In this document: piece after piece, positions 5,238 through 61,787 of the stretch
Layout of the letters: each line of letters starts with the position of its first letter
Position numbering within the stretch: the stretch's first letter is position 1
Assembly: GCA_045590555.1 (NCBI GenBank)
Contig: JAZNRC010000023.1
Location: 2,915 to 66,914 of the forward strand
Direction of reading: 5' to 3'
DNA length: 64,000 bases
Source: Lachnospiraceae bacterium
GTDB lineage: Bacteria; Bacillota; Clostridia; Lachnospirales; Lachnospiraceae
Program-made: the position numbers and the translations under genes
The notes under the pieces: model-generated
What the model was told of the DNA's origin: nothing
What the model saw: the letters and a program-made list of their open reading frames with translations, nothing else
Databases searched by the model: none

Positions 5238-5396
5238 TTTTCCTCCATTCCGGGGCTCTTTTTCCTTTAAAACAAAACCCGCAAATATACTTCTCTCTGC
5301 TAAAGCACTATCATACTAGCATGCAAAATCTGTCCTTGTCAACTGAATATATATAAAAAGCTGTACAGCATCCGCTTTCTAATTTTATAATTTCTA

Positions 5397-6800: not shown

Positions 6801-7838
6801 CTACTCCTTCACCTCCTCATAGATTTCCCGAATCAGAAACAGGCTCACCGGTCCTAAAACAATTCCTCCCACGCTAAAAAAGTGAAGCCCGAAGAACACC
6901 GACAACAACACCAAAATCGGATACACATTCATTTTATCTCCGATTAACTTCGGCTCCAGAATTTGCCGTAAAAAAACACAGATTCCGTATACCGCAAGGC
7001 AGCCCACTCCCTGCCACACCTTTCCCTGCAAAAACTGAAAAATCGCAATGGGAAGTAAGACAATTCCGCTTCCCACAAATGGAAGCATATCAAGAAATCC
7101 GGTCAGAAAGCCCCACAAATACCAACGCTCAACACCGCAGGCAAAAAGCCCCGCCATTGCCACGGCAGATACGCACAGTACAATGATTAGCTCCGCTTTT
7201 ATATATATTTTAAGAAGCGTAAGAATTTTACGGCTCATCAGACGTACCTTTTCAAACGCCGCATTTTTCGACAATTGTGCCTTAATACGGTCATAGTCCT
7301 TAGTCAACAGAAGAATGGCAATCACGGTAACCACCGTAAAAAAGACACCTTCCGCCACAGTTCCCGCATAAGAATAAGAAGCGTCGATTGCTTTTGGTGC
7401 AAAATTATCCCTGATGCTGACTACCATATTCTCCGTACCCTCAATCACTCTCTGCTGTAACTGCTTTGAATCCAGTTGCATTTTATCCCCTATAAAATCA
7501 CAGCAGGTATCCAGGGCAGTTATACAGCAATCCATTAAGTAACCACTGTTTTGGCGAAAGTCCCCTACCATATCCATACCGCGACAAATCAGAAACCAAG
7601 CTGTCAGAAGTAGAAAAATTGCCAGAACCGCCAACAAAACCCCCGCCAGAATCCCCTCCGGAATTTTAATTTTCTGATGAAGCTTTTTTAGAAAAGGCAA
7701 AAATATCAGAACAAACAGAAAAGCGATAAAAAAAGGTGCCAGAAAAGGTAACAAATACTTAAAAAACAAAAGCACTCCCACCGTAACTATTAATAATTTT
7801 ACTATATTTTTTTCCCATAAACGCATTAAAAAACCCAT
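6801..7838 (-). CDS. AI-2E family transporter (YtvI-like)
   Basis: FLAPFFIAF, GFLDMLPFVGSG, RQILEPKLIGDKMNVYP, GGIVLGP motifs. Confidence 0.85.
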   Translation of the reverse strand: MGFLMRLWEKNIVKLLIVTVGVLLFFKYLLPFLAPFFIAFLFVLIFLPFLKKLHQKIKIPEGILAGVLLAVLAIFLLLTAWFLICRGMDMVGDFRQNSGYLMDCCITALDTCCDFIGDKMQLDSKQLQQRVIEGTENMVVSIRDNFAPKAIDASYSYAGTVAEGVFFTVVTVIAILLLTKDYDRIKAQLSKNAAFEKVRLMSRKILTLLKIYIKAELIIVLCVSAVAMAGLFACGVERWYLWGFLTGFLDMLPFVGSGIVLLPIAIFQFLQGKVWQGVGCLAVYGICVFLRQILEPKLIGDKMNVYPILVLLSVFFGLHFFSVGGIVLGPVSLFLIREIYEEVKE

Positions 7839-7905: not shown

Positions 7906-10131
7906 CTATTGTTTTATTAACAGAATTTCCTCATCCGTGGACCAGGAAAATGATAATTGTACACTGTTTTCTTCCCGATATCCGGTATATTCCTTCCCAT
8001 ATACATAGTAAACCTCTCCCGGTTTTAAAATCGCTTGAGGAAGTTTTCCTTTCGTCAGTTCGCCTTCATCATCCGTCAGGCAATAATTTTCCAAATCAAT
8101 AACTGTCTGCCCGTTATTTTCTAAAACAACATAATCTTGCGAACCTTTTACATGGTACTGTGAAATAATAAGACTTTCTACGGATGCATCCACCTCCGAA
8201 TGAATCTTAATATCTAAAATTTCTGCCTTAAAATCACCCGGTATGATTTCCAGTACTTCACCAGCCCTGTATTCACCGTTTACGGTATATCCCGTTATCT
8301 TAATTCCGGGATTGGGTTCACACTCTATTCTCATGGGAACGTCTTCGAAATAATTACCGGTAAAACCACCGGTTATTTCGTATCCGTTTAATATAATTAC
8401 ATCTTCAAAATCTGCATTAATATTTACGGTAATTAAATTCTGCAGTTCCAGATAATTCTGCATTTCGCCAATTACAACACCGGGTCTGATTTGTCCGTAT
8501 TCGACAATTTCCGTCATCTCATTGAGTACATTATTTATATTATTGTCATCGCTTTCCAAAAGGGAACCTTTCAGCAAATCCGTATTCTGCATCATATGTT
8601 CCAGCTCTACGTAATGAAGACTGTTCATATCATACAACTCTTTTGCCACATTGTCCTGCTGAAATCCGGTATTCATGACATGCATGACTGCCTGAATAAA
8701 CAAGATTCTGAATTCTTCCTTCTTCATTAAAGCGGCAAAAAGTTCGGCAGACTCCTCTTCTTCGCACAGTGAAGCCAACCTCTCATGCGAAGGCTCGTAT
8801 CCGTAAGCTTCCACAACACGCAGTCCCAAACCATAATCCGTATCAAACAGCAGATACCGATATCTTCCGTCGAAAACTGTTCCTTCCTTATACTCCTCAC
8901 CTTCAGCAGGCTTATATGCATATACTTTTACATTATTCTGCGGCCAGTCAATATTGCCAATATAATATTCAATTGCCATATACAGCGCAAAATTTTCCAA
9001 ATCCAGTTTTTCTTTTACATATTCCCAGTTTTCCGGAGTTTCCAAATCCGACTGAACTACCTTGTTCACAAACGCATTATACTCATTATATACTTCCAGT
9101 TCTTCTTCGGTTTCTGCGCTGTCCGTCCAAACCTCGCTTAATGTTCCTTCACAAATATAGAATTCGCCTTCATAATCTCCGTATTTTTCCTGAAAATACC
9201 GATCATCATAGGTATTGTTAATCCAATAGACACCCTGATATCTGCCATTGACGAAAACCACTGCACTTTCCGCCACGAAAACATCCTGAAATCCGGATTG
9301 TCTTGCAAGTTCTCCCACCAACTCCGTTCGAATAAATCCATATCCGTTGTCATCTCCGGAATTGTGGAAAGAAAGCCTCTGATAATTATCAATTACCGTA
9401 TTGCTTGCATCCGAAACCAACTTATCCATAAACGGATAAAAGAATTCATTTAATCCCTCGTAGGCATCCCGTGCTATCAAACGAAAAGATTTCTGATTCT
9501 TGGCTCTTGTATAATTTCCGTATATTTTCAGCCCGCAATTCTGACTGACTACTTCTTCCCTTTCTGCGTCAAATATTGTTGCGTGAACTTCTATCTCTTT
9601 ATCAATCCAGAAATTTCCGTCAATCAACCCCCATATGCTGGCATCCGGATTTTCTTCCCAATACTGATCCCAACGGGCTCCTCTTGCAAAAATACCCTCT
9701 TCGTAACCGAATATATCTTCTTCTTTTCCTGTAATAGACACAACATAAGTTGTACTAAACCGTCCTGCGCCATTCACATCTACAAAATAATCTCGGTTGT
9801 ACACTTCCGATTGCGTGCCATCTTCAAAAACACAACAAAAACGATAGGAATAAACGGCTGTTTCATCCTGCAACTCAATATATATCGGTTCACTGTAAAT
9901 ATTAGGCTCGCCACTTTCTATATCCGGAAGCGTTCCGTCTGTAGTATAGTAAATCACTGCTTCCGATCCGGGTTTCACGGTTAAGTAGAATGATTCATTA
10001 TAAAATCCGCTCTCATGAGAAATTTTAACTTCATATCGATTCTCATATTTCTGATAAGCCCACAGCAAAACTATGGTAAAAAAAAGTAAAAATGCCCCAA
10101 ACAAAACTCCGGCTGTTTTTCTTTTATTCAT
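7906..10131 (-). CDS. CotH kinase family protein (N-terminal membrane anchor, Fn3-associated/chitobiase-like domain, C-terminal lamin-tail-like domain)
   Basis: IYYTTDGTLP; KSFRLIAR; NGRYQGVY; NIDWPQNN; RYLLFDTDYG; C-terminal YVVLENNG..IDLENYCLTD. Confidence 0.85.
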   Translation of the reverse strand: MNKRKTAGVLFGAFLLFFTIVLLWAYQKYENRYEVKISHESGFYNESFYLTVKPGSEAVIYYTTDGTLPDIESGEPNIYSEPIYIELQDETAVYSYRFCCVFEDGTQSEVYNRDYFVDVNGAGRFSTTYVVSITGKEEDIFGYEEGIFARGARWDQYWEENPDASIWGLIDGNFWIDKEIEVHATIFDAEREEVVSQNCGLKIYGNYTRAKNQKSFRLIARDAYEGLNEFFYPFMDKLVSDASNTVIDNYQRLSFHNSGDDNGYGFIRTELVGELARQSGFQDVFVAESAVVFVNGRYQGVYWINNTYDDRYFQEKYGDYEGEFYICEGTLSEVWTDSAETEEELEVYNEYNAFVNKVVQSDLETPENWEYVKEKLDLENFALYMAIEYYIGNIDWPQNNVKVYAYKPAEGEEYKEGTVFDGRYRYLLFDTDYGLGLRVVEAYGYEPSHERLASLCEEEESAELFAALMKKEEFRILFIQAVMHVMNTGFQQDNVAKELYDMNSLHYVELEHMMQNTDLLKGSLLESDDNNINNVLNEMTEIVEYGQIRPGVVIGEMQNYLELQNLITVNINADFEDVIILNGYEITGGFTGNYFEDVPMRIECEPNPGIKITGYTVNGEYRAGEVLEIIPGDFKAEILDIKIHSEVDASVESLIISQYHVKGSQDYVVLENNGQTVIDLENYCLTDDEGELTKGKLPQAILKPGEVYYVYGKEYTGYREENSVQLSFSWSTDEEILLIKQ

Positions 10132-11539: not shown

Positions 11540-12211
11540 CTATTCCTGCGACCATGGAAGGTCGGAAACCGTAAATGTCATTTCTTTCTTCGTCTTCGGA
11601 TGTATAAACGTTAATTCACAGGCACATAGTTTGAGTGAAGACGATTTTGACACCATACCGTATTTGGTATCGCCCAAAATAGGATGTCCCACCGCCGCCA
11701 TCTGCACGCGAATCTGATGATGTCTTCCGGTATACAGCTTTATCGCAATTTGTGAACAGACTTCACCATCTGATTCCAACTCTTTTTCCACTTTGTAAAA
11801 AAGTTTAGACTTTTTACCGGAGGCTGATACATAAGACTTATTTGCTTTCACGTCCTTTTGCAGAAAATGCTCTAAAACCGCTTCCGCGGGATTCATTACC
11901 CCATGCACCAGCGCCTTATATTGCTTATTCATCCTTCCATCCTGTACCTGGGAAGAAAGACAAGCTGCTGCCGCCTGATTCTTTGCAAACACTAAAACCC
12001 CGCTTACCGGCTGGTCCAAGCGATGCACCACACCAAGGTAGGGCTCTTTGCTTCCGTTTCTGCCCATGGATACATTCTCTGTCCGGGCAAGATAATTTTT
12101 TAATTCACTCACCATATCCTGCTGTCCCACGCCGGCAGTCTGCACTGCAATTCCCGCAGGCTTATAACACACCAGAATATCTTTGTCTTCAAATAAAATT
12201 TCCGTTTTCAT
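11540..12211 (-). CDS. RluA family pseudouridine synthase
   Basis: VHRLDQPVSG catalytic motif, TGRHHQIRVQMA..GHPILGDTKY. Confidence 0.92.
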   Translation of the reverse strand: MKTEILFEDKDILVCYKPAGIAVQTAGVGQQDMVSELKNYLARTENVSMGRNGSKEPYLGVVHRLDQPVSGVLVFAKNQAAAACLSSQVQDGRMNKQYKALVHGVMNPAEAVLEHFLQKDVKANKSYVSASGKKSKLFYKVEKELESDGEVCSQIAIKLYTGRHHQIRVQMAAVGHPILGDTKYGMVSKSSSLKLCACELTFIHPKTKKEMTFTVSDLPWSQE

Positions 12212-12903: not shown

Positions 12904-14603
12904 TCTACCGTTCCTCCTTCTTTGGAGTTATTTTCCTTCTCTTTTTTATTCCCGCTCTTTTTCTTTCCGCCGTCGGATTTCTTCGGATTAAAACGTTCCT
13001 TAATTCCCTTTTCCAAATCATTAATGCCGAAGTTATCCAGAGATAGTTTTTCTGCCTCTGTCTCAATTCGCTTAGCGGTATTTTTAATCATCTTTTCAAT
13101 CTTATTAAAAGGTCCGCTCTCTCCCGTTACGTCGGCAACCTCTTCCTCTATCATGCACTTACGCAGGGTAAAATGTATGGTAAGTCCTTTTCCTTCTTCC
13201 CCGGTAGCCCAGATTTCACCTCCGTGCTCCTCTACAATTTTTTTACTGATGGAAAGACCGATACCACTACCGCCCTGAGCAGAATTACGGGATGCATCCG
13301 TACGATAAAAACGCTCAAAAATCTTCTCCATATCATCCTTGGGAATTCCCTTGCCGTTATCCGCTATATCCACCCGCACCAAATTCTTCAAATCTGCTAC
13401 ATGAATCGAAATAAAAGCATCTTCCCTGCAACGATATTTAACACTGTTATTAATGATGTTATTAATGACGCGCTTTAACTGCTCCGGATCTGCCCATATC
13501 TGGACTCCGCTTTCGACTTCATTGGCATATTCAAAACGAATACCTTTCTGCTCTAAATCAAGACCGACTTCTTCAATACAGTCACCGAAATAATCCGTTA
13601 CGCTGATCTGATGAAAACGGTAAGGAATACTTTTGGCATCCAACTGGGAATACACTGTCAGCTCATTGATAAGCAAATCCATGTCATTTGCTTTATTATA
13701 AATGGTACGGATATATTTGTTCATTTTCTCCGGTGTATCCGCAACACCATCCATAATACCTTCCACATATCCTTGAATGGAAGTAATGGGCGTTTTTAAA
13801 TCATGGGAAATATTGCGGATTAATTCCCGGTTGGTCTTTTCCACCAACGCCTTTTCTTCCGCATTGCTTTTCAGCTGCTTTCTCATGCTCTCAAAATTAT
13901 CAAAAAGATCCTTAACCTCTCCTTTTTCTTTGGTAACAAGTTCTGTATCCAAGTCACCTTCGGCGATTTTCTGCATCGCAACTTTTAACTCATTCATGGG
14001 ACGGAACATACTGCGTCTCAGCCACAGAATAAGAAGAATACCCGTAACCACCAATACCAATATCATGGCAACCAGCATGGCAGTAACCAACGCCTCCGAA
14101 ACCATGGTATTTACTTTCGTTACCAGATATATACTGCCTTCACTGCCATCCGCAAATGTAAATTCCGCCTTTTTAACGAGACGACGAATATCCTTAAAAT
14201 AATACTCCAATTCCGTATCTGCCAGTCCCGTCAGCTGATGTATAACCGGATCATATTGGCTTTCTTCTGAAACATAATAAATTGACTGACCTTTCTTAAC
14301 TACCAAAAAGGCAGATACTTCACTCAGGCTCTCATCCATACCTGCAAGGAAATCCTTGTCTTCCAGCTTAGCAGGATCATTTATTGCACATTCTTCCATT
14401 ACATCGTAATGGTCACTGATAATTTCATCATAAGCCGACGCCGGATTGGATGCAAAAGAGAAACTGATACTGTCTTCTCCATAAGTATCCCTCATGCCCA
14501 ACACGACGGTAGCCCCGATAATCAGGTATGCGATGGTAGTCAACAGAATCGGCAAAACCACTATTATTATAAAAGTAATCCAAAGTTTGGTTTTTAACTT
14601 CAT
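12900..14603 (-). CDS. HAMP-domain sensor histidine kinase
   Basis: Two TM segments, ISHDLKTPITSIQGY H-box, NIINNSVKY, DNGKGI, GGSGIGLSI; start MKLKTK. Confidence 0.93.
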   Translation of the reverse strand: MKLKTKLWITFIIIVVLPILLTTIAYLIIGATVVLGMRDTYGEDSISFSFASNPASAYDEIISDHYDVMEECAINDPAKLEDKDFLAGMDESLSEVSAFLVVKKGQSIYYVSEESQYDPVIHQLTGLADTELEYYFKDIRRLVKKAEFTFADGSEGSIYLVTKVNTMVSEALVTAMLVAMILVLVVTGILLILWLRRSMFRPMNELKVAMQKIAEGDLDTELVTKEKGEVKDLFDNFESMRKQLKSNAEEKALVEKTNRELIRNISHDLKTPITSIQGYVEGIMDGVADTPEKMNKYIRTIYNKANDMDLLINELTVYSQLDAKSIPYRFHQISVTDYFGDCIEEVGLDLEQKGIRFEYANEVESGVQIWADPEQLKRVINNIINNSVKYRCREDAFISIHVADLKNLVRVDIADNGKGIPKDDMEKIFERFYRTDASRNSAQGGSGIGLSISKKIVEEHGGEIWATGEEGKGLTIHFTLRKCMIEEEVADVTGESGPFNKIEKMIKNTAKRIETEAEKLSLDNFGINDLEKGIKERFNPKKSDGGKKKSGNKKEKENNSKEGGTVE

Positions 14604-14756
14604 AGCTCTATCCCACTCTTGATTTTTATCTTCCCCCAGTATAACATAAACCGCAGAGAGCATAGGATATTTTTTCTAAAATTTTTATAAAAAAGCCATA
14701 AAACGCCGATGCTGTTTCCGTATCTATATCAGATAGCCCATTTAAAGGAGGTTTTT

Positions 14757-16070
14757 ATGAAAAAAAGATATCTTCGTTACATAGCAATACTCACTTTAAT
14801 TCCCTTACTATTCATAACCGGTTGCGGCAACAACCCTGCCTTTGAATTTAATATTATGGATGAGTTATTTGCAGAATTTGAAGAACCGGAAGAACCCGAC
14901 GTTGAAATTCCCTCAGACTATGAAAGACCCATACTTGCCGAGGATATGAATGAAGCCTATGTGGATTTTTCCATTGAATTATTCAAAAGAAGCCTGGCCG
15001 AAGGTGAAAACTCCATGATTTCTCCGGCTTCCGTGGAATTTGCCCTGGTGATGGCATTAAACGGTGCCGACAATGAAACTCTAACGGAAATGCTCACCAT
15101 ACTTTGTCCCGGTGCAACTCAGGAAGAAATCAATGCTTTTGTACAGGATTTGGACGATATGCTTACCTACAGTGAAAGTACTGCTTTTAATATTGCCAAC
15201 TCCATATGGTGTAACGAAAGTGTTTTAGGCGATTGTTTAAATGAAAGTTTTGCAGACGCCTTAAAAGAAGATATGAATGCAGAAGCTTATATGCTTCCTT
15301 TTAATGATAAAGCCGTAAAAGAAATCAATAACTGGGTGGATGATAATACAAACGGAATGATTACCGAACTTCTGGATGAAATCCCCCCCGAAGCGGCAAT
15401 GTATTTAATCAACGCCATTGCTTTTGAAGGCGAGTGGGAAGAAGCTTACGAAGATTATCAGATTAAAGAAGATGGCATTTTCAATAATGCTGCAGGTGAA
15501 GAAGAGCAGGCCAGAATGTTAAAAGAAACCGGCTCCCATTATTTTGAAAATGAAGATGCCGTTGGTTTTATGAAATATTATGACGGCAGAGACTATGCTT
15601 TTCTTGCCATGCTTCCTAAGGAAGAGGGAGCCATTGAGGATTTTGTTAATGAAATGACTGCGGAAGACTATATGACCTTTTATAAAAGCCATACCACGGA
15701 ATACGACGTAATAACGGAATTACCCTGTTTTACCTACTCTTATGATGTGACTATGAACGATGCTCTCATAGATATGGGCATGCAGACTCCTTTTTCGGAA
15801 GATTATGCCGATTTTTCTCTTATGGTCACTGACCCGGAAGTAGAATTATATATCAACAGAGTGATGCATAAGACCTATATTGAATTAGATGAAAACGGCA
15901 CCAAGGCCGCAGCGGTTACTGCAGTGGAAATGAACTGCGAATCCTGTGCAGAACCGGAACTTCGTGAAGTAAAGGAAGTCATTCTGGACAGACCTTTTGT
16001 CTATGCCATTGTGGATGTGGAAACCGGTTTACCGGTATTCATCGGAACCGTGAATTCGGTTGCGAAATAA
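14757..16070 (+). CDS. Serpin family lipoprotein
   Basis: Lipobox ITGC; NSMISPAS, INNWVDDNTNGMI, LINAIAFEGEW, ELDENGTKAAAVT hinge, DRPFVY signature; AAGGAGG RBS before ATG 14757. Confidence 0.93.
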   Translation: MKKRYLRYIAILTLIPLLFITGCGNNPAFEFNIMDELFAEFEEPEEPDVEIPSDYERPILAEDMNEAYVDFSIELFKRSLAEGENSMISPASVEFALVMALNGADNETLTEMLTILCPGATQEEINAFVQDLDDMLTYSESTAFNIANSIWCNESVLGDCLNESFADALKEDMNAEAYMLPFNDKAVKEINNWVDDNTNGMITELLDEIPPEAAMYLINAIAFEGEWEEAYEDYQIKEDGIFNNAAGEEEQARMLKETGSHYFENEDAVGFMKYYDGRDYAFLAMLPKEEGAIEDFVNEMTAEDYMTFYKSHTTEYDVITELPCFTYSYDVTMNDALIDMGMQTPFSEDYADFSLMVTDPEVELYINRVMHKTYIELDENGTKAAAVTAVEMNCESCAEPELREVKEVILDRPFVYAIVDVETGLPVFIGTVNSVAK

Positions 16071-16097
16071 GAGGTCGCATCTGACAGAATTATAAAT

Positions 16098-16231
16098 AAA
16101 AGCAATATATCAATTCTTCGCGGGGACGCTCTCGCTTGGTTGTCCCACGTAGCGGCACCTAGGGTTGCAAAATACGCAACCCAAATGCCGACGGGTACAA
16201 ACACCCCTTAAAGAAATGATATATTGCTTTT
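16098..16231 (+). repeat. Long-hairpin dispersed element, copy E1 (ACGCTCTCGCT family)
   Basis: 15-bp outer IR AAAAGCAATATATCA/TGATATATTGCTTTT enclosing nested stems; shares a 25-nt and a 19-nt exact block with 18094-18233 (reverse strand). Confidence 0.85.
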
Positions 16232-16242
16232 TTCATTTTTAC

Positions 16243-17373
16243 TTAATTCAAATCAAACGTGATATTCCAGTCACCTTTGATACTGTCGTCACGGACTTCA
16301 CCTTCTCCCCAAATAGTGCAGGTTTCCAGTTGTTCTTCCGTAATTACGAAATAGTATTCCTCCATCGATATTTTCTCATTTGCAACATCTTCCTGCCAGC
16401 CCACAGCCAGATTCGGATGGATTTGGTTGCCGGCTTCATCCAGCATATAAATGTTCATATGACGGTCTGCTTCCCTGAAATTTCCCCGGCAAAGCTGGAT
16501 GCGAAGAATACCGTCCATGTAAGCAATACCTGTGATTTTCATTTCATCAGGACTTATATTGTCCAAAGGTATATCCATTACCAGATGACCGGGACGAGGA
16601 TCAACTTCATTCCCGGGTACCGTAAGCTTATCCAGTGCCGGATGCATCTGCTCCATACCACTGCGTCCGTTCAGGCTTACGGACTTTACCTCCACGGATT
16701 GCACCATATCATTCAACCGGATTTCCTCCTGAAAGCTTTCACAATCAGTCAGTAGCTGATGCACGCTAAATTCCATTCTGTCTGTATCAAAGCTACCGTC
16801 CGTACTCATCAAATCAATCTGAAAATACGCTTTATCCTGTTCTGCATCATATTCCATAAAAGCACAACCGCCCACATTGCTGTCTTCACCGTAACTTTGC
16901 AAATTGTAACTGTCATACATATCTACCATTCCGTGTATATAATCGCTGGTGCCATCATCCGTAAAAGAGACCAAAATCTCTGCCCTATTTCCTTCCACAT
17001 ATGCAGCTTCCAAAGTAAGAACAATGCCACGGTCGGTGTCCGTTTCCTGTATGGGAATCAGATAATCCAGAAGCCCCGGTGCCTTACGCTCCAAAACCCC
17101 ATAAAATGCAGGTATGTTCTCAGCCGCAACCGGTGCTCCCAAAACAACAGACAGACAGACAATCAGCATCATTGCTGCCATCGTAGGGAGAATTCTTCGC
17201 GTTATTTTCCCGGCTGGCATTGCTTTTTTCTTCGTATTTTTATCCTGCAACAGTTCTATTTTATAATGATTTCTTTTATCAAAAGACCCTATCCACTCTG
17301 CCACCTGCGCTTCGCTAACTTCACCTTGAAAGGCAATTTTATGATAAGCACTTTTATATGTATCCTGAAACAT
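16243..17373 (-). CDS. Anti-sigma factor-like membrane protein (DUF4179 type)
   Basis: Single TM after N-terminal cytoplasmic part, TDRGIVLTLEAAY domain start; ATG overlaps the sigma stop (TAATG). Confidence 0.75.
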   Translation of the reverse strand: MFQDTYKSAYHKIAFQGEVSEAQVAEWIGSFDKRNHYKIELLQDKNTKKKAMPAGKITRRILPTMAAMMLIVCLSVVLGAPVAAENIPAFYGVLERKAPGLLDYLIPIQETDTDRGIVLTLEAAYVEGNRAEILVSFTDDGTSDYIHGMVDMYDSYNLQSYGEDSNVGGCAFMEYDAEQDKAYFQIDLMSTDGSFDTDRMEFSVHQLLTDCESFQEEIRLNDMVQSVEVKSVSLNGRSGMEQMHPALDKLTVPGNEVDPRPGHLVMDIPLDNISPDEMKITGIAYMDGILRIQLCRGNFREADRHMNIYMLDEAGNQIHPNLAVGWQEDVANEKISMEEYYFVITEEQLETCTIWGEGEVRDDSIKGDWNITFDLN

Positions 17374-17912
17374 TACACATCCTCCTTTAACCAATCTTTT
17401 AGCATTTTACGCGCTCTGGTAAGTCTGGTCCGCACATTGGAAGGCCGCAAATTAAGAGCTCCGGCAATTTCTTCAATGCTCATTTCCTCATAGTAAAAGA
17501 GGTGTATCACTGCCCTATACTTTAACGGCAGGCGTTTCACTGTTTCCACAACCAGTTCCTCTTCTTCAGTTAACTCTTTCTTCCCTTGCCCGGCATTCAT
17601 ACAATCGGTTTTACAATACCTACTGCCTGAATCTTCGTCTTCTTCCAACGAATTCATACTTACCACACGTTGTCGCCATGCTGTTTTCCATAAGTTTTTA
17701 CATAGATTGGTTGTAACACGGATAAACCACGCCCTCTCATGCTCGCTATTTTCAAAAATCGGATTCGTGCGGATATATCGCAACATAACTTCCTGTCGGA
17801 TATCCTCTGCATCCTGATTTGTTTTTACCATGGAAAAGGCAAGGCGATACACACAATCTGAATTTCTCTTTATAATCTCTGTCATTTTTTCTACGCGTAG
17901 ATCATTCTGCAT
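17373..17912 (-). CDS. ECF RNA polymerase sigma factor (sigma-70 family)
   Basis: VYRLAF..QDAEDIRQEV, AWFIRVTTNLCKN, LPLKYRAVIHLFYYEEMSIEEIA, VRTRLTRARKML. Confidence 0.92.
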   Translation of the reverse strand: MQNDLRVEKMTEIIKRNSDCVYRLAFSMVKTNQDAEDIRQEVMLRYIRTNPIFENSEHERAWFIRVTTNLCKNLWKTAWRQRVVSMNSLEEDEDSGSRYCKTDCMNAGQGKKELTEEEELVVETVKRLPLKYRAVIHLFYYEEMSIEEIAGALNLRPSNVRTRLTRARKMLKDWLKEDV

Positions 17913-17935
17913 CTCACCACCCCTTTCACTTAATA

Positions 17936-17962
17936 TACAAATCAACATTCGAAAAAGCTACA
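17936..17962 (-). promoter_or_regulatory. Possible ECF-type autoregulatory promoter
   Basis: Minus strand TGTAGC-N16-TGTAT upstream of the sigma RBS, resembling TGAAAC-N16-CGTA. Confidence 0.3.
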
Positions 17963-18000
17963 AATTCACAATTATAAAATTTTTAAATCTTTTTTACTCA

Positions 18001-18037
18001 AAAAAGCTGTACAGACCATCCAATCCATACAGCTTTT
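18001..18037 (-). terminator. Rho-independent terminator after the Mrp operon
   Basis: AAAAGCTGTA...TACAGCTTTT inverted repeat flanked by A/T runs. Confidence 0.6.
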
Positions 18038-18093
18038 CATTCACTATAATACTACCCATTCTCTTGTCTTTTTCATTTTATAAGCAATACACA

Positions 18094-18233
18094 GCCGTGA
18101 GAAGAATATATATTGCTTTAAGGGGTGTTTGTACTCGCCGGTATTTAGGCTGTGTTTTTTACAGCCTTATATACCGCTGCGTAGGACAACCAAGCGAGAG
18201 CGTCCCCGTAAGCATATATATCCTTCTCACGGC
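18094..18233 (-). repeat. Long-hairpin dispersed element, copy E2
   Basis: Outer IR GCCGTGAGAAG/CTTCTCACGGC; AGCGAGAGCGT at 18193-18203; co-linear with E1 with compensatory changes. Confidence 0.85.
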
Positions 18234-18258
18234 GTCCTCTTATAAAATAAGCGTCCCC

Positions 18259-20391
18259 TTACCGTAAAATAACCCAAATCAAATAAATAATGGTCAATAC
18301 CAACCCCAGGCAGAACAGAATCAATCCGTAAGATAAACTTCTGGCAATAATCTGATTATTCTCTGCCTGCTCTTCCCAACGTACCGCAAAAATATGCTCG
18401 AAAGATTTACGGATGGGGTTCTTTTTGCAAACGGTCTTATTCAACACCCAAACTACTTTATCCACTATTACAGCCGCAATATGAGTAAGCGGATTACCTT
18501 CCGGAAGTTCATGTGGAAGCGGGCTGTCCTTATACACCGTTTTGCGAAGCCATACCACAGGAGCATCCACAATACGATCCAATACCCTGCATATAATTCC
18601 ACAGATAAACGGAATAAATTTAATAAAAACAGGTCTGTAAATACTATTTTCCAAATCCATCCACTTTGGCCAGAAATCACCATAGATGTCCTTGCCGCTT
18701 TCATCCTTCTTCATAAGACAGATTCGCACAAGCGCATAATACAGAATCACTCCGATGGCGATAGATATCAAAGAACCTTTCATATTGTGGAAAACAAAAT
18801 AATGCACGGAATGGTCAAGAAGACCTACGTTAAAAATATTCTGTCCGAAATCCATTACAAAATCTGCCGTCACATTGGGTATCATGCCGATTACCGGAAT
18901 TAGAACGGCACTGCCAAGCAAAGCAAATCCGCTTCCGAAATTCATATACTTCTTTTTTGCATCGAATTCCGCCTGCTTCTCTTCGTCCCCGTTTTTCTCT
19001 ATGAAAATGCAAATATACAATTTTAGCATATAAGCTAAAGTACAGCCTCCGGCTAACAAATAAAGCATTTCCACATAACCGGGAACCGAAGGAACCTCCA
19101 GCATTCCTTCATGAATCAAAGTTTTTCCGATATAGCCGTTAAAAAACGGAATACCTGAGATACCCAGTACACCCAGTAAAAACGCTATATTGAGCAAAGG
19201 TTTTTTACGACCGAAGCCTCGGATATCATTTAAATTCAGCTTATGAGTATTCATGTAAATCACACCTGCCGCCATAAAAAGTACCAGCTTTAAAATAGAG
19301 TGATTCACCATATAAATCAAAGTTCCTCTTGCCGCCAGCACATTTTCTCCGTGAGATATGGCAAGAATTGCCACGCCGGTTAAAATAAAACCAATCTGAG
19401 ATAGGGAGGAACAAGCCAGCACCCTTTTTAAATCCACGGAAAACAATGCCAACAGCGCTCCCAGAAGCATTGTTACCACTGCAATTGCCAGCAACATATA
19501 TCCAAACCATTCCGTATATCGGAAAACATGCACCGAAATCATAATAATACCAAAAATACCTGTTTTGGTAAGTACACCCGATAAAAGTGCCGATGCCGGT
19601 GCCGGTGCCACCGGATGTGCTTTGGGCAACCAAATGTGCACGGGAAAGGCACCTGCTTTTACCGCAAATCCGAATAAAATGCAGATTCCCGCAGCAATAA
19701 TCTGTCCGGGTAACTCAATAATATCACCCAGCATAATTCGCATCTGATAGATAATTTCGCTAAACATCAGGGTTCCCAGACTGTCCCACAGCATAAAAAT
19801 ACCCATCAGCATAACCATACCGCCGATTATGGAAATGCCCAAATAGGTTTCCGCTGCTTTTAAGGCTTCCGGCTTTTCCTCCTGCGCTACCCAAACGTAA
19901 GAAGTTAAGGACATAATCTCGAAGAAAATAAAAGTGGTAAAAAAGTCCGCCGAGAGGAAAACACCCATAGTCGCCCCCAGGGTTACCAGAAGAAAGGCAT
20001 AAAAGCGGTTACGGTTGCGATGCTTTGCAAAATATTCGGGACAAAGCAAGGTAACCATCATCCACATAAATGCCACAACCAAGGCGTATACACTGCGAAA
20101 ACCGTCTAAGGTAAAATGAATCCCCATGCCGCAAATGTCCGGAATTTCCAATCCAAACTTCATCAGGCTTCCCACAAGAACCGGAGATTGTGCGCCTACT
20201 GCCATTAACGTTTTGCCGGATTCGTTATATCCCAAAAGGACCGTAAATGCCACCAGCGCAAATTCACTTATGGTGATAAAATTTGCCGCCAAATTGCGGG
20301 CAGTCTTCCATCTAAGCCCGACAAGATAAGAAATCAGGGCTCCCAACATGGGATAAAAAATCATTATGGCAATTAAAATATCATATCTCAT
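18259..20391 (-). CDS. MrpD/NuoL-like proton-conducting antiporter subunit (4th, with C-terminal extension)
   Basis: FFEIMSLTS, KAGAFPVHIWLPKAHPVAPAPASALLSGVLTKTG, LKRVLACSS. Confidence 0.88.
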   Translation of the reverse strand: MRYDILIAIMIFYPMLGALISYLVGLRWKTARNLAANFITISEFALVAFTVLLGYNESGKTLMAVGAQSPVLVGSLMKFGLEIPDICGMGIHFTLDGFRSVYALVVAFMWMMVTLLCPEYFAKHRNRNRFYAFLLVTLGATMGVFLSADFFTTFIFFEIMSLTSYVWVAQEEKPEALKAAETYLGISIIGGMVMLMGIFMLWDSLGTLMFSEIIYQMRIMLGDIIELPGQIIAAGICILFGFAVKAGAFPVHIWLPKAHPVAPAPASALLSGVLTKTGIFGIIMISVHVFRYTEWFGYMLLAIAVVTMLLGALLALFSVDLKRVLACSSLSQIGFILTGVAILAISHGENVLAARGTLIYMVNHSILKLVLFMAAGVIYMNTHKLNLNDIRGFGRKKPLLNIAFLLGVLGISGIPFFNGYIGKTLIHEGMLEVPSVPGYVEMLYLLAGGCTLAYMLKLYICIFIEKNGDEEKQAEFDAKKKYMNFGSGFALLGSAVLIPVIGMIPNVTADFVMDFGQNIFNVGLLDHSVHYFVFHNMKGSLISIAIGVILYYALVRICLMKKDESGKDIYGDFWPKWMDLENSIYRPVFIKFIPFICGIICRVLDRIVDAPVVWLRKTVYKDSPLPHELPEGNPLTHIAAVIVDKVVWVLNKTVCKKNPIRKSFEHIFAVRWEEQAENNQIIARSLSYGLILFCLGLVLTIIYLIWVILR

Positions 20392-20461
20392 ACATAACTC
20401 CATTATAACGTTGTTTCTATCAAACCTTTATATTTTATACTTCACATATGACAAATTATTT

Positions 20462-21937
20462 TTATAAGAGCCCATTGGCAATTTGAGTAAAATAATCCAC
20501 AATGGGGCCGGAGTACAGTCCGAACAATACACATCCTGCTGCAAAGATATACAACGGAATCAACATTCTCCATCCCGGATCCTTAATATTCCCGAACTCT
20601 TTATCATCTTCTTCCGGAGTGAGGACAAATGCCCTTATCACAATTGTCATCATATAAATACCGGTTAAAAGTGCAGAAATCAGCAATGCGGCAATTCCCA
20701 CATAAGCCAATACATTTCCGCTGTCTACCGCTGCCTTGGTCAGGTTCCACTTACTTACAAAACCGCACAGTCCCGGAACACCCATAAGTGCCAGAGATGC
20801 CAAGGTAAACAAGGTAAAAATTTGAGGCATTTTTTTACCCAGACCGTTTAACTGATGCACAAAGGTTTTACCGCTCTGTACAATCACGGCACCGGCACAC
20901 AGGAAGGACAATATCTTCATAAAAGCATGGAATACCATATGACTCAAACCGCCTACCAAGCCCAAAGGTGACATTAAAACCACTCCAAAGAGGATATAGG
21001 ATAAGTTGCTGACGGTAGAATAGGCCAGACGTCTTTTAAAATGGGTTTCTTTTACCGCCATGGAACATCCGTAAACAATGGTAAATACCACAAGTCCCAT
21101 CACAACGTACTGCGCCCAGGTTCCTTTTAAGAAATCCGGACCAAACATATAGTAAGTCAAACGCATGGTTGCAAATGCACCTGCCTTTACTACCGCAACC
21201 GCATGAAGCAGAGCCGTTACCGGCGTAGGTGCCACACCCGCCTGCGGAAGCCATGAACTTAAGGGGAAGATGGCAGCTTTTACACCAAATCCCATAAATG
21301 CGAATACATACACCAGCAATAAAATATTTTCGCGACTGCCGATGGCAGCTAAATCCAGTACACCGCCATAGGTGAAATCAGGGGTTAAGCCGTAAGTAAT
21401 GACGAAAATCATTCCGATAAACGCAAATGCCGCACCACCGATGGAGTAATAAAGATATTTTCGACTGGCAAGAATGGCCTCTCTGGAACCGCTGTGCATA
21501 ACCAGCGGGAAGGTAACCAAAGTCAACATTTCATAAAATCCGTACATGGTTAACACATTGGCCGCCATGGAAATACCAAGAGTAACGCCGTATGTCATGG
21601 TATAAAACATGAAAAAGGATTTTTCTTTTCCTTCATGCTCCATATATTCAAAAGCATACAACGTGGCAAGAGGCCAAAGAAAAGCTATCATCGCCGTAAA
21701 TACGCTTCCCAGACCATCCAATTGGAAAGATATACTCAAATCACCAAAAAAGTGAATCAGATTCATAGTCTCGCCGGGAGGATTAAATAATATAAAAAAT
21801 ACCAAAATACTGGTAAGTACCACAACCGACTCTACATAAATATGCATGCTTCGTTTCTTTTGAAAAGGAAGAACCGGCACCAAAGCACCGCCAAGTACCG
21901 GAAGTGCAATTGCAATTGGCAAAATATATGATGGCAT
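20462..21937 (-). CDS. MrpD/NuoN-like antiporter subunit (3rd)
   Basis: FYEMLTL, KAAIFPLSSWLP..APTPVTALLHAVAVVKAG, KRRLAYST. Confidence 0.88.
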   Translation of the reverse strand: MPSYILPIAIALPVLGGALVPVLPFQKKRSMHIYVESVVVLTSILVFFILFNPPGETMNLIHFFGDLSISFQLDGLGSVFTAMIAFLWPLATLYAFEYMEHEGKEKSFFMFYTMTYGVTLGISMAANVLTMYGFYEMLTLVTFPLVMHSGSREAILASRKYLYYSIGGAAFAFIGMIFVITYGLTPDFTYGGVLDLAAIGSRENILLLVYVFAFMGFGVKAAIFPLSSWLPQAGVAPTPVTALLHAVAVVKAGAFATMRLTYYMFGPDFLKGTWAQYVVMGLVVFTIVYGCSMAVKETHFKRRLAYSTVSNLSYILFGVVLMSPLGLVGGLSHMVFHAFMKILSFLCAGAVIVQSGKTFVHQLNGLGKKMPQIFTLFTLASLALMGVPGLCGFVSKWNLTKAAVDSGNVLAYVGIAALLISALLTGIYMMTIVIRAFVLTPEEDDKEFGNIKDPGWRMLIPLYIFAAGCVLFGLYSGPIVDYFTQIANGLL

Positions 21938-55000: not shown

Positions 55001-55072
55001 TGCTCCCAGCAGGAATCGAACCTGCAACTAGCCCTTAGGAGGGGCTTGTTATATCCATTTAACTATGGAAGC
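55001..55072 (-). tRNA. tRNA-Arg (anticodon CCT), CCA not encoded
   Basis: GCTTCCA/TGGGAGC acceptor stem, AGCCC-CTCCTAA-GGGCT anticodon arm, GGTTCGATTCC T-arm. Confidence 0.95.
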
Positions 55073-57280: not shown

Positions 57281-57399
57281 GAATTTCACCTCTTTTCTGA
57301 TACATTTATAACTTATCTTTTTTATCAAAAAGAAGATATCACATCTTAAATAACTCTCTATTAAAAATTTTATCTATAAAAAACATAATTTCTTACAAA

Positions 57400-57552
57400 G
57401 ACAGGAGTAGGTTTTATATATTTCCTTAAGAACCTTATGAACTGCGTCGGCGCTTAACGAATGCAGACATAGTCTGTATGAGTTTAGCATCCGCTACGTT
57501 GTTCATAGAGCGAGAGCGTGTTCGCAAGGAATTATATAAAACCTACTCCGTC
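57400..57552 (-). repeat. Long-hairpin dispersed element, copy E3 (diverged)
   Basis: Outer IR GGAGTAGGTTTTATATA/TATATAAAACCTACTCC; AGCGAGAGCGT at 57509-57519, CCGCTACGT at 57491-57499, CGTCGGC at 57445-57451. Confidence 0.82.
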
Positions 57553-57564
57553 CCATTATAAAAA

Positions 57565-58842
57565 TTATCTAATTTCGCTCTTTCCACCCATATAAGGTCT
57601 CAATGCCTCAGGAATACGAACGGAACCGTCTTCCTGATAGTTATTCTCCAAGAATGCAATAAGTGCACGGGGTGTAGCCAATACAGTATTGTTTAAGGTA
57701 TGCACATAGTAAGTACCGTTTTCACCCTTGGTACGAATTTTCAAACGTCTTGCCTGCGCATCACCTAAAGTTGAGCAAGAACCAACCTCAAAATATTTCT
57801 GCTGTCTGGGGCTCCATGCTTCCACGTCGCAGGATTTTACTTTTAAGTCAGCTAAGTCACCGCTACAGCATTCCAAAGTACGAACGGGAATGTCTAAACT
57901 GCGGAAAAATTCTACCGAGTACTGCCACATCTTGTTGTACCAATCCATGGAATCTTCGGGTTTACATAAAACTACCATTTCCTGCTTTTCAAACTGATGC
58001 ACACGATATACACCACGCTCTTCCATACCATGAGCGCCTACTTCCTTACGGAAACAGGGTGAGTATGAGGTCATGGCAATGGGTAACTGGCTTTCTTCCA
58101 CGATTTCGCCCTGGAATTTGCCAATCATGGAGTGCTCGGAAGTACCGATTAAGAATAAGTCTTCACCCTCAATTTTATACATCATTGCTTCCATTTCCGC
58201 AAAACTCATAACGCCGTTTACCACGTCACTACGAATCATAAAAGGCGGAATGCAATAGGTAAATCCTTTATCAATCATAAAATCTCTGGCATAGCTAATC
58301 ATAGCTGAGTGAATTCTTGCAGCATCGCCCATTAAGTAGTAGAAACCTTCACCACTGGTTCTTCCTGCAGCCTTCTTGTCCAAACCATTCATACTATTAA
58401 TAATATCTGCATGGAAAGGAACTTCGTATTCCGGAACAACGGGATCGCCGTACTTCTGGATTTCAACATTTTCGGAGTCATCCTTACCGATGGGAACACT
58501 TTCATCAATGATATTAGGAATTACCATCATGATTTTGGTAGTTTTTTCTTCCAGCTCTTTCTGCTTTGCTTCAAGCTCTGTTAAACGCTGTGCACCTTCG
58601 GCAACCTGCTTTTTTACTTCTTCAGCTTCTTCTTTTTTACCCTGAGCCATTAACGCACCGATTTGCTTCGCAATTTTATTTTTATTTGCTTTGATATCAT
58701 CAACTTCCTGCTGTGTTTTTCTTCTTTCAGCATCAAGTTCAATTACCTCATCCACCAATGCAATCTTCTCATCCTGGAATTTCTTTCGGATATTCTCTTT
58801 TACCAATTCCGGATTTTCTCTCAAAAACTTAATATCAATCAT
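57565..58842 (-). CDS. serS: Serine--tRNA ligase
   Basis: MIDIKFLRENPE, LIGTSEH, CFRKEVGAHG, GVYRVHQFEKQE, VHTLNNT. Confidence 0.97.
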   Translation of the reverse strand: MIDIKFLRENPELVKENIRKKFQDEKIALVDEVIELDAERRKTQQEVDDIKANKNKIAKQIGALMAQGKKEEAEEVKKQVAEGAQRLTELEAKQKELEEKTTKIMMVIPNIIDESVPIGKDDSENVEIQKYGDPVVPEYEVPFHADIINSMNGLDKKAAGRTSGEGFYYLMGDAARIHSAMISYARDFMIDKGFTYCIPPFMIRSDVVNGVMSFAEMEAMMYKIEGEDLFLIGTSEHSMIGKFQGEIVEESQLPIAMTSYSPCFRKEVGAHGMEERGVYRVHQFEKQEMVVLCKPEDSMDWYNKMWQYSVEFFRSLDIPVRTLECCSGDLADLKVKSCDVEAWSPRQQKYFEVGSCSTLGDAQARRLKIRTKGENGTYYVHTLNNTVLATPRALIAFLENNYQEDGSVRIPEALRPYMGGKSEIR

Positions 58843-58958
58843 GACTTCCTCCATTTTAGGCTCTTGCCTTATTTTATTATTATCTTCTTTGCTGTTTTTA
58901 TTTTATAAAAAACAATTTAGCAATATATTTTTGAAAAGGTCTAAAAGAATTTCAAAAC

Positions 58959-61689: not shown

Positions 61690-61705
61690 TGTTTCACGTG
61701 AAACA
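61690..61705. other. parS site 2 (within a 32-bp perfect palindrome)
   Basis: ATGTTTAATGTTTCACGTGAAACATTAAACAT at 61682-61713. Confidence 0.93.
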
Positions 61706-61720
61706 TTAAACATATCATTA

Positions 61721-61729
61721 TGTGGATAA
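61721..61729 (-). promoter_or_regulatory. DnaA box
   Basis: TGTGGATAA, 16 bp from parS2. Confidence 0.6.
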
Positions 61730-61787
61730 CAAATCATATAAAAGTAAAATAAACACAAGATATTGATAAAATATAAAATTCAATCTA

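Follow-up and report, generated by a model that had tools for sequence, protein, structure and literature searches.

To our knowledge, very little is on record about small interspersed repeats of gut Clostridia. ERIC (IRU) and Correia (CREE) sequences of Proteobacteria are 100-150-nt imperfect palindromes found in transcribed intergenic regions in either orientation, with conserved terminal inverted repeats and, for Correia, a TA duplication; they form long RNA hairpins able to alter mRNA processing and stability. REP, BIME and REPIN sequences are associated with RAYT transposases; these extragenic palindromes lie at the 3′-ends of genes, and their hairpins change by compensatory substitution. 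Their conserved part is a stem-forming 20-40-mer with a GTAG head, and the insertion of IS1397 and ISKpn1 into REP loops is a precedent for mobile DNA targeting the loop of a palindrome. The attC sites of integrons are imperfect palindromes at gene 3′-ends as well, with conserved extrahelical bases and a variable tip, and act as folded single strands. In the Bacillus cereus group, bcr1 repeats (~155 bp) are intergenic, transcribed with neighbouring genes and patchily distributed between close relatives; their long predicted fold is kept by compensatory changes, and the structure is lost in some copies (PMC3184786). SPRITE, RUP and BOX of Streptococcus pneumoniae are small interspersed repeats with predicted RNA-level structures, SPRITE being a mimic of Rho-independent terminators with a bias to gene ends, and the same source names ERIC and Correia among published small-repeat precedents (PMC3184786).

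The three elements described here, E1, E2 and E3, belong to a family of small non-coding, hairpin-forming interspersed repeats that had not been described before and that is restricted, in the sampling so far, to one clade of Lachnospiraceae from herbivore guts. All three lie in the window, i.e., the whole 64,000-nt stretch of Lachnospiraceae bacterium contig JAZNRC010000023.1 (positions 2,915 to 66,914) that was analysed (Table 1). Public runs containing the stretch are sheep, goat and other gut metagenomes, and the related genome records are from Lachnospiraceae only. E1 is placed between the convergent serpin and DUF4179 anti-sigma genes, and its arms AAAAGCAAUAUAUC/GAUAUAUUGCUUUUUU resemble a terminator acting in both directions whose loop houses the core. 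E2 is found in sense orientation 26 nt past the stop codon (18259-18261) of the Mrp-type gene.

Table 1. Coordinates of the repeat copies and of neighbouring features in the window.
Feature	Position	Strand	Remarks
Unoccupied site: short palindromic terminator GCTGT/ACAGC + TTTTT	5355..5375	-	3′ of AdoHcyase gene; L018 has a 139-nt copy there
Serpin	14709-16070	+	Pfam
E1 full hairpin + T-run (16228-16233)	~16096..16233	+	R1 136 bits
E1 core	16122..16207	+	Same-genome contigs match ~16112/16123 to 16201/16206 only, flanks unrelated
DUF4179 anti-sigma-like protein	16243-17394	-	Pfam
ECF sigma factor	17373-17948	-	Pfam
Hairpin + T-run between E2 and ECF sigma gene	18001-18037	-	Conserved in L006 and L017
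E2 full hairpin	18094..18233	-	Outer stem GCCGUGAGAAGG.../...CCUUCUCACGGC enclosing core; R1 154 bits, E 1e-36
E2 core	18122..18207	-	GGGG...CCCC; unit common to dispersed copies
Two partial repeats of core 5′ motif (GGGGACGC, GAGGACGCC)	18231..18258	-	Directly 3′ of Mrp stop codon
Proton_antipo_M (Mrp-type) subunit, last in row of such genes	18259-20403	-	Pfam
E3, third, divergent copy	57400..57554 (model match 57407-57548)	-	R1 54.7 bits, E 2e-11; R2 88.9 bits
serS	57565-58854	-	E3 directly follows

A few features of the surroundings are recorded here in their own right. Tandem partial copies of the core 5′ motif (AAGGGGACGC...) follow the Mrp stop codon, two in the window (18231-18258) and three at 4380-4435 of L006, a Lachnospiraceae metagenome-assembled genome; GGGACG-like motifs are also seen 3′ of the serS and jag stop codons. 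A perfect parS-like palindrome, GTTTCACGTGAAAC (within atgtttaatGTTTCACGTGAAACattaaacatg), is present at 61700-61730 (−) upstream of parA/parB, and the loci of relatives show jag-trmE-gidA-gidB upstream in the same order, followed by parA, parB, DUF4446 and serS. Because of this palindrome and gene order, the right end of the window should be close to the replication origin. In L025 and L046, the DUF6709 gene, the second gene after serS, is followed by an SBP/Glt_symporter neighbourhood; in its place, L026 has a phage-integrase/HTH_17/YqaJ/RecD2-like block (13954-21243) that is likely an integrated element.

The initial annotation had reported two blocks shared exactly by E1 and E2, and both are present: a 25-mer, CGGGGACGCTCTCGCTTGGTTGTCC, at 16121-16145 (+) and 18184-18208 (−), and a 19-mer, GTACAAACACCCCTTAAAG, at 16195-16213 (+) and 18116-18134 (−). 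Within the window, neither has a further match with up to 3 mismatches (0 expected by chance). A structure-guided alignment of the two elements contains 33 differing columns. Ten base pairs are changed on both sides and all ten are still Watson-Crick, where about seven pairing-preserving double substitutions had been claimed; every swap then listed recurs (ACGU/ACG to ACGC/GCG, CGGCA/UGCCG to CGGUA/UACCG, CCC/GG to CCU/AG, GGGUUGC to AGGCUGU and UUCUU to UGCUU). Six of the ten belong to the core (CG to UA, UA to CG, CG to UA and three in the terminal hairpin) and four to the outer stem. Only two pairs carry a one-sided change, the other differences being unpaired positions or indels. E2 is not simply the terminator, as had been argued: TTTTTT follows the E1 stem at 16228-16233 whereas no U-tract is found 3′ of the E2 stem, and a separate hairpin with a T-run stands at 18001-18037. 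Both elements fold into long rods of much greater stability than shuffled sequences (z-scores −7.4 and −8.5), as do their reverse complements (−8.2 and −8.7). A coding interpretation was discarded: E2 has an AUG frame of 18 codons, but E1 lacks an AUG and has a stop in that frame, and substitutions, inspected by eye, track helices and not codons.

The core (~86-95 nt) consists of a 4-bp closing helix, an asymmetric junction with an invariant 11-mer loop, a long bulged stem and a variable tip. The closing helix is GGGG/CCCC in E1/E2-type copies and GAAC/GUUC in E3-type copies; despite this exchange, E3 keeps the loop ACGCUCUCGCU and ACGUAGCGG...CCGACG. On its 5′ side the junction is the nearly invariant ACGCUCUCGCU, on its 3′ side a short A-rich stretch. 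The 11-mer forms a 2-bp mini-hairpin (G3:C10 and C4:G9) that itself covaries, with G:C replaced by A:U in L027a (ACACUCUUGUU). The long stem has two constant bulges, a single A and an AG (ACGYAGCGG...CCGRCG), and the 3′ strand of an internal loop retains a conserved YAAR. Just 3′ of a stop codon, the core is always located at the centre of a longer palindrome that is specific to the locus: GCCGUGAGAAGG/CCUUCUCACGGC in E2, GGGACGGAGUAGG/CCUACUCCUGUC in E3, ACCCCCCAAAAAUAAAUCCUUC/GAAGGAUUUAUAUUUUUGGGGGU in L020b and GCUGUGUGGAU/AUCCACACAGC in L018c. E3b-type copies have common arms, (G)YTGTRTGGATTATTTT.../...AAAATATCCAYACAG, while dispersed E1/E2-type copies have only GGGG...CCCC in common. At the core and arm boundaries examined no target-site duplication was seen, and ATAAAA direct repeats flank only an outer unit in L027. 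This unit (6978-7202, 225 bp) has perfect 23-bp terminal inverted repeats, AGTCCCAATTCGGTTATTTGTGT, ATAAAA at its flanks and a core copy at its centre; it has the look of a classical MITE, and L025, L026, L028 and the window lack it at the corresponding site.

To search for further copies, a covariance model (R1) was built from five sequences: E1, E2, two copies from L006, which is syntenic with the window at ~80% identity, and one divergent copy from L010, the isolate Lachnospiraceae bacterium V9D3004. In the window, R1 returned E3 as the third copy. Orthologous neighbourhoods of relatives were gathered via homologues of the sigma factor and SerS, and R1 and R2 found in all 14 copies or remnants (three in the window and 11 in relatives), distributed over seven loci and ~275 kb of related DNA; six loci near serS, from one close relative and from more distant ones, had no copy. 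The neighbouring genes (serpin, Mrp, serS, jag, response regulator, AdoHcyase) are unrelated across copies. Comparison of Logan contigs from four metagenomes with the E1-E2 region gave, in each sample, about six further core contigs whose depth equals that of the organism, with ~88% identity to the E1 core stretch and unrelated flanks thereafter. Since these contigs match the core only, the ~86-nt GGGG...CCCC core is the conserved, dispersed unit.

Beyond these relatives, a scan of GTDB with an 18-mer (one genome per species) returned 15 matches, of which two were real, both in Lachnospiraceae (L006 and L010), and the others at chance level. The whole window searched against Rfam 15 at the gathering threshold contains no related family and a single match, a tRNA gene (55001-55072, −, 66 bits); a permissive search (E ≤ 10) over 15900-18400 and 57380-57580 gave chance-level matches only. 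Likeness to group II intron domain V, tRNA, K-turn or T-box was rejected, being unsupported by the sequence, the tRNA model or Rfam. There was no blastn match of E2 to PLSDB plasmids or INPHARED phages. Among IMG/VR viral contigs, the gapped E1/E2 pattern had 0 matches and a loop-plus-stem pattern 15, none confirmed by R2, and the gapped pattern had 0 matches in JGI metagenome contigs. The single 20-mer match in JGI data (L019) is to high-GC, coding-looking DNA and not to the element. Over 26 nt at 652-677 (GGGGACGCTCCCGCTTGGTTGCCCCA), L019 (Ga0315912_10190902) is identical to the L006b copy; the match exceeds the 20-nt query in length, has no hairpin context and is probably due to chance.

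Copies are gained or lost between congeneric genomes and strains, flip, homogenise and erode by internal deletion. At the AdoHcyase site, the L018 copy (L018c) is antisense to both neighbours, and L020 and the window have, at the exact point it occupies, a short terminator GCTGT(GT..AG)ACAGC with a T-run. The copy at the Mrp site is kept in four genomes; in L021-24, the Mrp-to-sigma gap is 82 nt long with a simple terminator and no copy. The serS site is empty in L027, L028 and L046, retains the 3′ half in L025 and is reduced to nearly nothing in L026, and the response-regulator site is occupied in L027 only. The distal stems are deleted in the serpin-site copies of L017 and L018 (L017b and L018a), and L016 has a 5′ stub only. 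Erosion extends to the window's own species, in which strains X2 and X3 have lost most of E3 (~57371-57532) between TTTTATA repeats. Dispersed copies and insertion polymorphism between related genomes, two of the features by which a MITE is recognised, are both present.

Inversion and exchange are seen in the same material. L006 is collinear with the window in reverse orientation and both flanks of its serpin-site copy align plus/minus, while the copy itself aligns plus/plus to E1; the unit at this site, bounded by GCATCTGACATAGA/TCTATGTCAGATGC, has the opposite orientation in L017 and L018. These flips are the outcome of recombination between the arms of the element. On the core alignment, E2 (Mrp site) and L006a (serpin site of another species) are 100% identical in spite of their non-orthologous sites, compared to 72-80% for the flanking genes, and E1 is similar to the copies at the Mrp site in L006 and L017. 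L020a and L020b (9713-9844 and 11734-11867), 2 kb from each other in one genome, have cores 94% identical, above the identity of either to its positional ortholog, which indicates concerted evolution or recent duplication.

An alignment of many copies, as proposed in the initial annotation, confirms the dominance of double changes: in the 14-copy alignment, fitted to the model, standard pairs occupy 94% of cells, 38 of 45 pairs show double changes, and two-sided changes amount to 127 cells versus ~12 one-sided. For this small sample (14 copies, several orthologous, in an alignment fitted to the model), the covariation score is 0.569, against 0.204 in shuffles and ~0.1 (about five times lower) with slid 3′ partners, and 0 of 500 shuffles reach any of the observed measures. 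Covariation is thus as expected of a cis-regulatory structured RNA; the strand-specific signature and consistent gene context of such RNAs are absent. A bias towards G-U pairs had been suggested as the mark of RNA function, and the count of paired cells (550 Watson-Crick, 13 G-U, 10 A-C) does not favour it. The antisense strand is equally or more stable in 13 of 14 copies, and half-compensated intermediates are rare on both strands. Since G-U pairs are about as frequent as A-C and the antisense folds as well or better, the pairing has no RNA-specific signature. The two causes originally put forward for the E1/E2 pattern, selection on single-stranded structure or palindrome correction, therefore stand only in part. 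A structural constraint is evident from the double changes and the shuffles, RNA-specific selection is not, and palindrome correction by itself falls short, as every subfamily retains the asymmetric loop ACGCUCUCGCU together with the A and AG bulges. Other DNA-level processes are directly visible in the serpin-site inversion, the homogenised copies and at least four independent internal deletions.

With moderate confidence, we take the E1/E2/E3 family to be an insertion-polymorphic palindromic repeat analogous to bcr1, SPRITE and ERIC, selfish-DNA-like rather than a dedicated RNA gene. Only hairpin-competent copies would propagate or persist, and arm-to-arm correction together with copy-to-copy exchange would remove half-compensated intermediates; E1 and E2 would differ by clean Watson-Crick swaps because the fold is needed for persistence and correction and exchange purge what lies between. 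The fixed loop and bulges presumably serve as the recognition surface of a putative protein. As neither a transposase, nor a target-site duplication, nor an autonomous parent element was found in the loci examined, it is solely the presence/absence patterns that point to mobility, and some of the "empty" sites (GCTGT...ACAGC) could be deletion footprints and not pre-insertion sites. Sited between stop codon and terminator, the copies are probably co-transcribed as giant 3′ UTR hairpins and, by analogy with other small bacterial repeats, could secondarily influence termination or mRNA decay.

The local arms often have the A-tract/stem/T-tract layout of terminators, as in E1 (AAAAGCAAUAUAUC...GAUAUAUUGCUUUUUU), L025a (...AACUGUCUUUUUU) and L018c (AAAAAGCUGUGUGG...CCACACAGCUUUUU). 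T-runs accompany E1, L006a, L025a and, on the opposite strand, L018c, and are lacking in E2, E3, L010 and L027a. In many cases the palindrome is probably the intrinsic terminator of the adjoining gene. The simplest reading is that cores occupy the apical loop of intrinsic terminators; the order of events could also be the reverse, with short terminators as the residue of interior deletion. The 18001-18037 hairpin has as its left arm GCTGTATGGATT, the sequence that also forms the outer arm of E3b-type copies elsewhere, at loci unrelated to it (L018 19060.. and L027 7014..), and the arm GYTGTRTGGATT recurs at unrelated loci (L018c, L027a) as well as in this left arm. Due to this match, 18001-18037 may be the deletion remnant of another copy. 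Consensus scans for a promoter upstream of E1, E2 and E3 gave nothing beyond shuffle expectation. A riboswitch or leader for the sigma gene was rejected, since relatives keep the sigma operon without E2.

The main alternative, that the core is a cis-acting structured RNA of 3′ UTRs, held in the loop of a terminator hairpin, with the transcript under selection and spread secondary, appears to us rather unlikely. Such an RNA might act in protein binding, processing or stability, or tune termination. The very strong covariation, which includes the 2-bp mini-hairpin, agrees with it, as do the loop and bulges invariant across sub-families. So does position: copies are found 0-40 nt past a stop codon, in sense, at the Mrp, serS, L010 and response-regulator sites, and a copy is sense to its upstream gene in 4 of the 5 informative (non-convergent) sites. 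As for transcription, no RNA run indexes the E1/E2 region; one contig from metatranscriptome X28 extends out of serS into the 5′ half of E3, and contigs from X25 and X28 contain an E2-type core with other flanks. These contigs fit 3′ UTR co-transcription weakly, as they are unstranded, assembled and possibly DNA. Against RNA-level selection stand the balance of G-U and A-C pairs with an antisense strand that folds as well or better, the antisense placement of L018c, the inverted serpin-site copy, the frequent loss and erosion, even intraspecies, and the lack of any common gene class.

The repeat interpretation does have a feature speaking against it in its plain form: an asymmetric loop that stays invariant, and bulges that stay fixed, across sub-families with fully diverged helices point more to a functional RNA or a protein-binding structure than to an ordinary MITE. 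The core might be a new class of structured three-way-junction hairpin module with an invariant loop and extrahelical purines, bound as RNA or ssDNA by a dedicated putative protein and installed in the apical loops of terminators, a proposal we regard as unlikely. If true, the module would be either the substrate on which a new mobilisation system targeting hairpin loops acts, or a portable tuner of termination and 3′-end stability for the gene upstream.

It is improbable that the elements work as ssDNA or cruciform DNA recognised by a recombinase or transposase specific for hairpins (HUH/Y1-type, IS110-like or a loop-targeting IS), with the conserved bulges as extrahelical bases that would set strand choice. 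Symmetric, essentially Watson-Crick-only pairing with fixed unpaired bases would suit this mode of action, and so would cores exactly at palindrome centres, the arm-bounded inversion and the L027 unit with its terminal repeats, ATAAAA direct repeat and central core. However, no candidate enzyme gene lies beside any copy in the loci examined, neither a conserved cleavage or target motif nor a target duplication was seen at core boundaries, and orientation relative to replication is inconsistent, the serpin-site copies and L018c being on the other strand. Very improbable is a mobile or invertible sigma/anti-sigma cassette (inverton or dif-module like) with E1 and E2 as its inverted-repeat ends: E1 (+) and E2 (−) do flank the ECF sigma/anti-sigma pair in inverted orientation 1.9 kb apart, but the idea is largely refuted by the L006 copies, which are direct repeats with the same gene order, and by X1-X4 DNA contigs, which drop minor variants and have no strand-switch joints at E1/E2, while L016 and L018 retain the cassette without the upstream copy, the Mrp-to-sigma interval of L021-24 is free of copies, and copies occur at unrelated loci too. 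Inversion was seen between species only, both orientations in one population not being detected in the X1-X4 contigs.

Returning to the palindromic repeat that we favour, E2 belongs to a new family of small repeats whose terminator-nested architecture is unusual, and is not a unique regulatory RNA. The family is a clean natural example of how helices are kept up by paired substitutions. Searches for structured RNA repeatedly yield false positives from constraint at the DNA or propagation level, and a Watson-Crick-only, strand-symmetric signature helps to separate such constraint from true RNA selection. The constant nesting of cores in terminator palindromes suggests either a mobile element targeting terminator loops or that many terminators of these genomes are element leftovers; both scenarios would matter for operon annotation, for breaks in MAG assembly and for the 3′ UTR biology of an abundant, mostly uncultured rumen and hindgut lineage.

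Each of the described systems shares part of this picture. From textbook MITEs the family differs in that the inner core and not the terminal repeats is common to dispersed copies, that no target duplication is seen at the core and that every copy is set in a local palindrome. ERIC and Correia are palindromes of similar size found in both orientations, as here, but lack the invariant asymmetric junction loop of the present family. In REP and REPIN the stem is the conserved part, whereas here stems vary and the inner loop and bulges are conserved; the GTAG head is absent and no RAYT was seen beside copies in the loci examined. As in attC sites, structure is conserved above sequence and extrahelical bases are fixed, but copies are dispersed and not cassette-bounded, with no R″/R′ boxes (RYYYAAC/GTTRRRY) in E1/E2 and no integrase or array beside copies. 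SPRITE, RUP and BOX are small interspersed repeats of a Gram-positive host too; they belong to another host clade, have no sequence similarity to the E1/E2 family, and differ in that the terminator-like part is here a variable local arm and the conserved part a bulged three-way core in its loop. The likeness to bcr1 is that of a Firmicutes intergenic repeat of similar size with patchy distribution and compensatory changes. No sequence similarity links the two, and bcr1 behaves as a classical MITE with 5-bp direct repeats, whereas the E1/E2 family, with no duplication found at its core boundaries, shares an inner core only, each copy carried by a palindrome specific to its locus.
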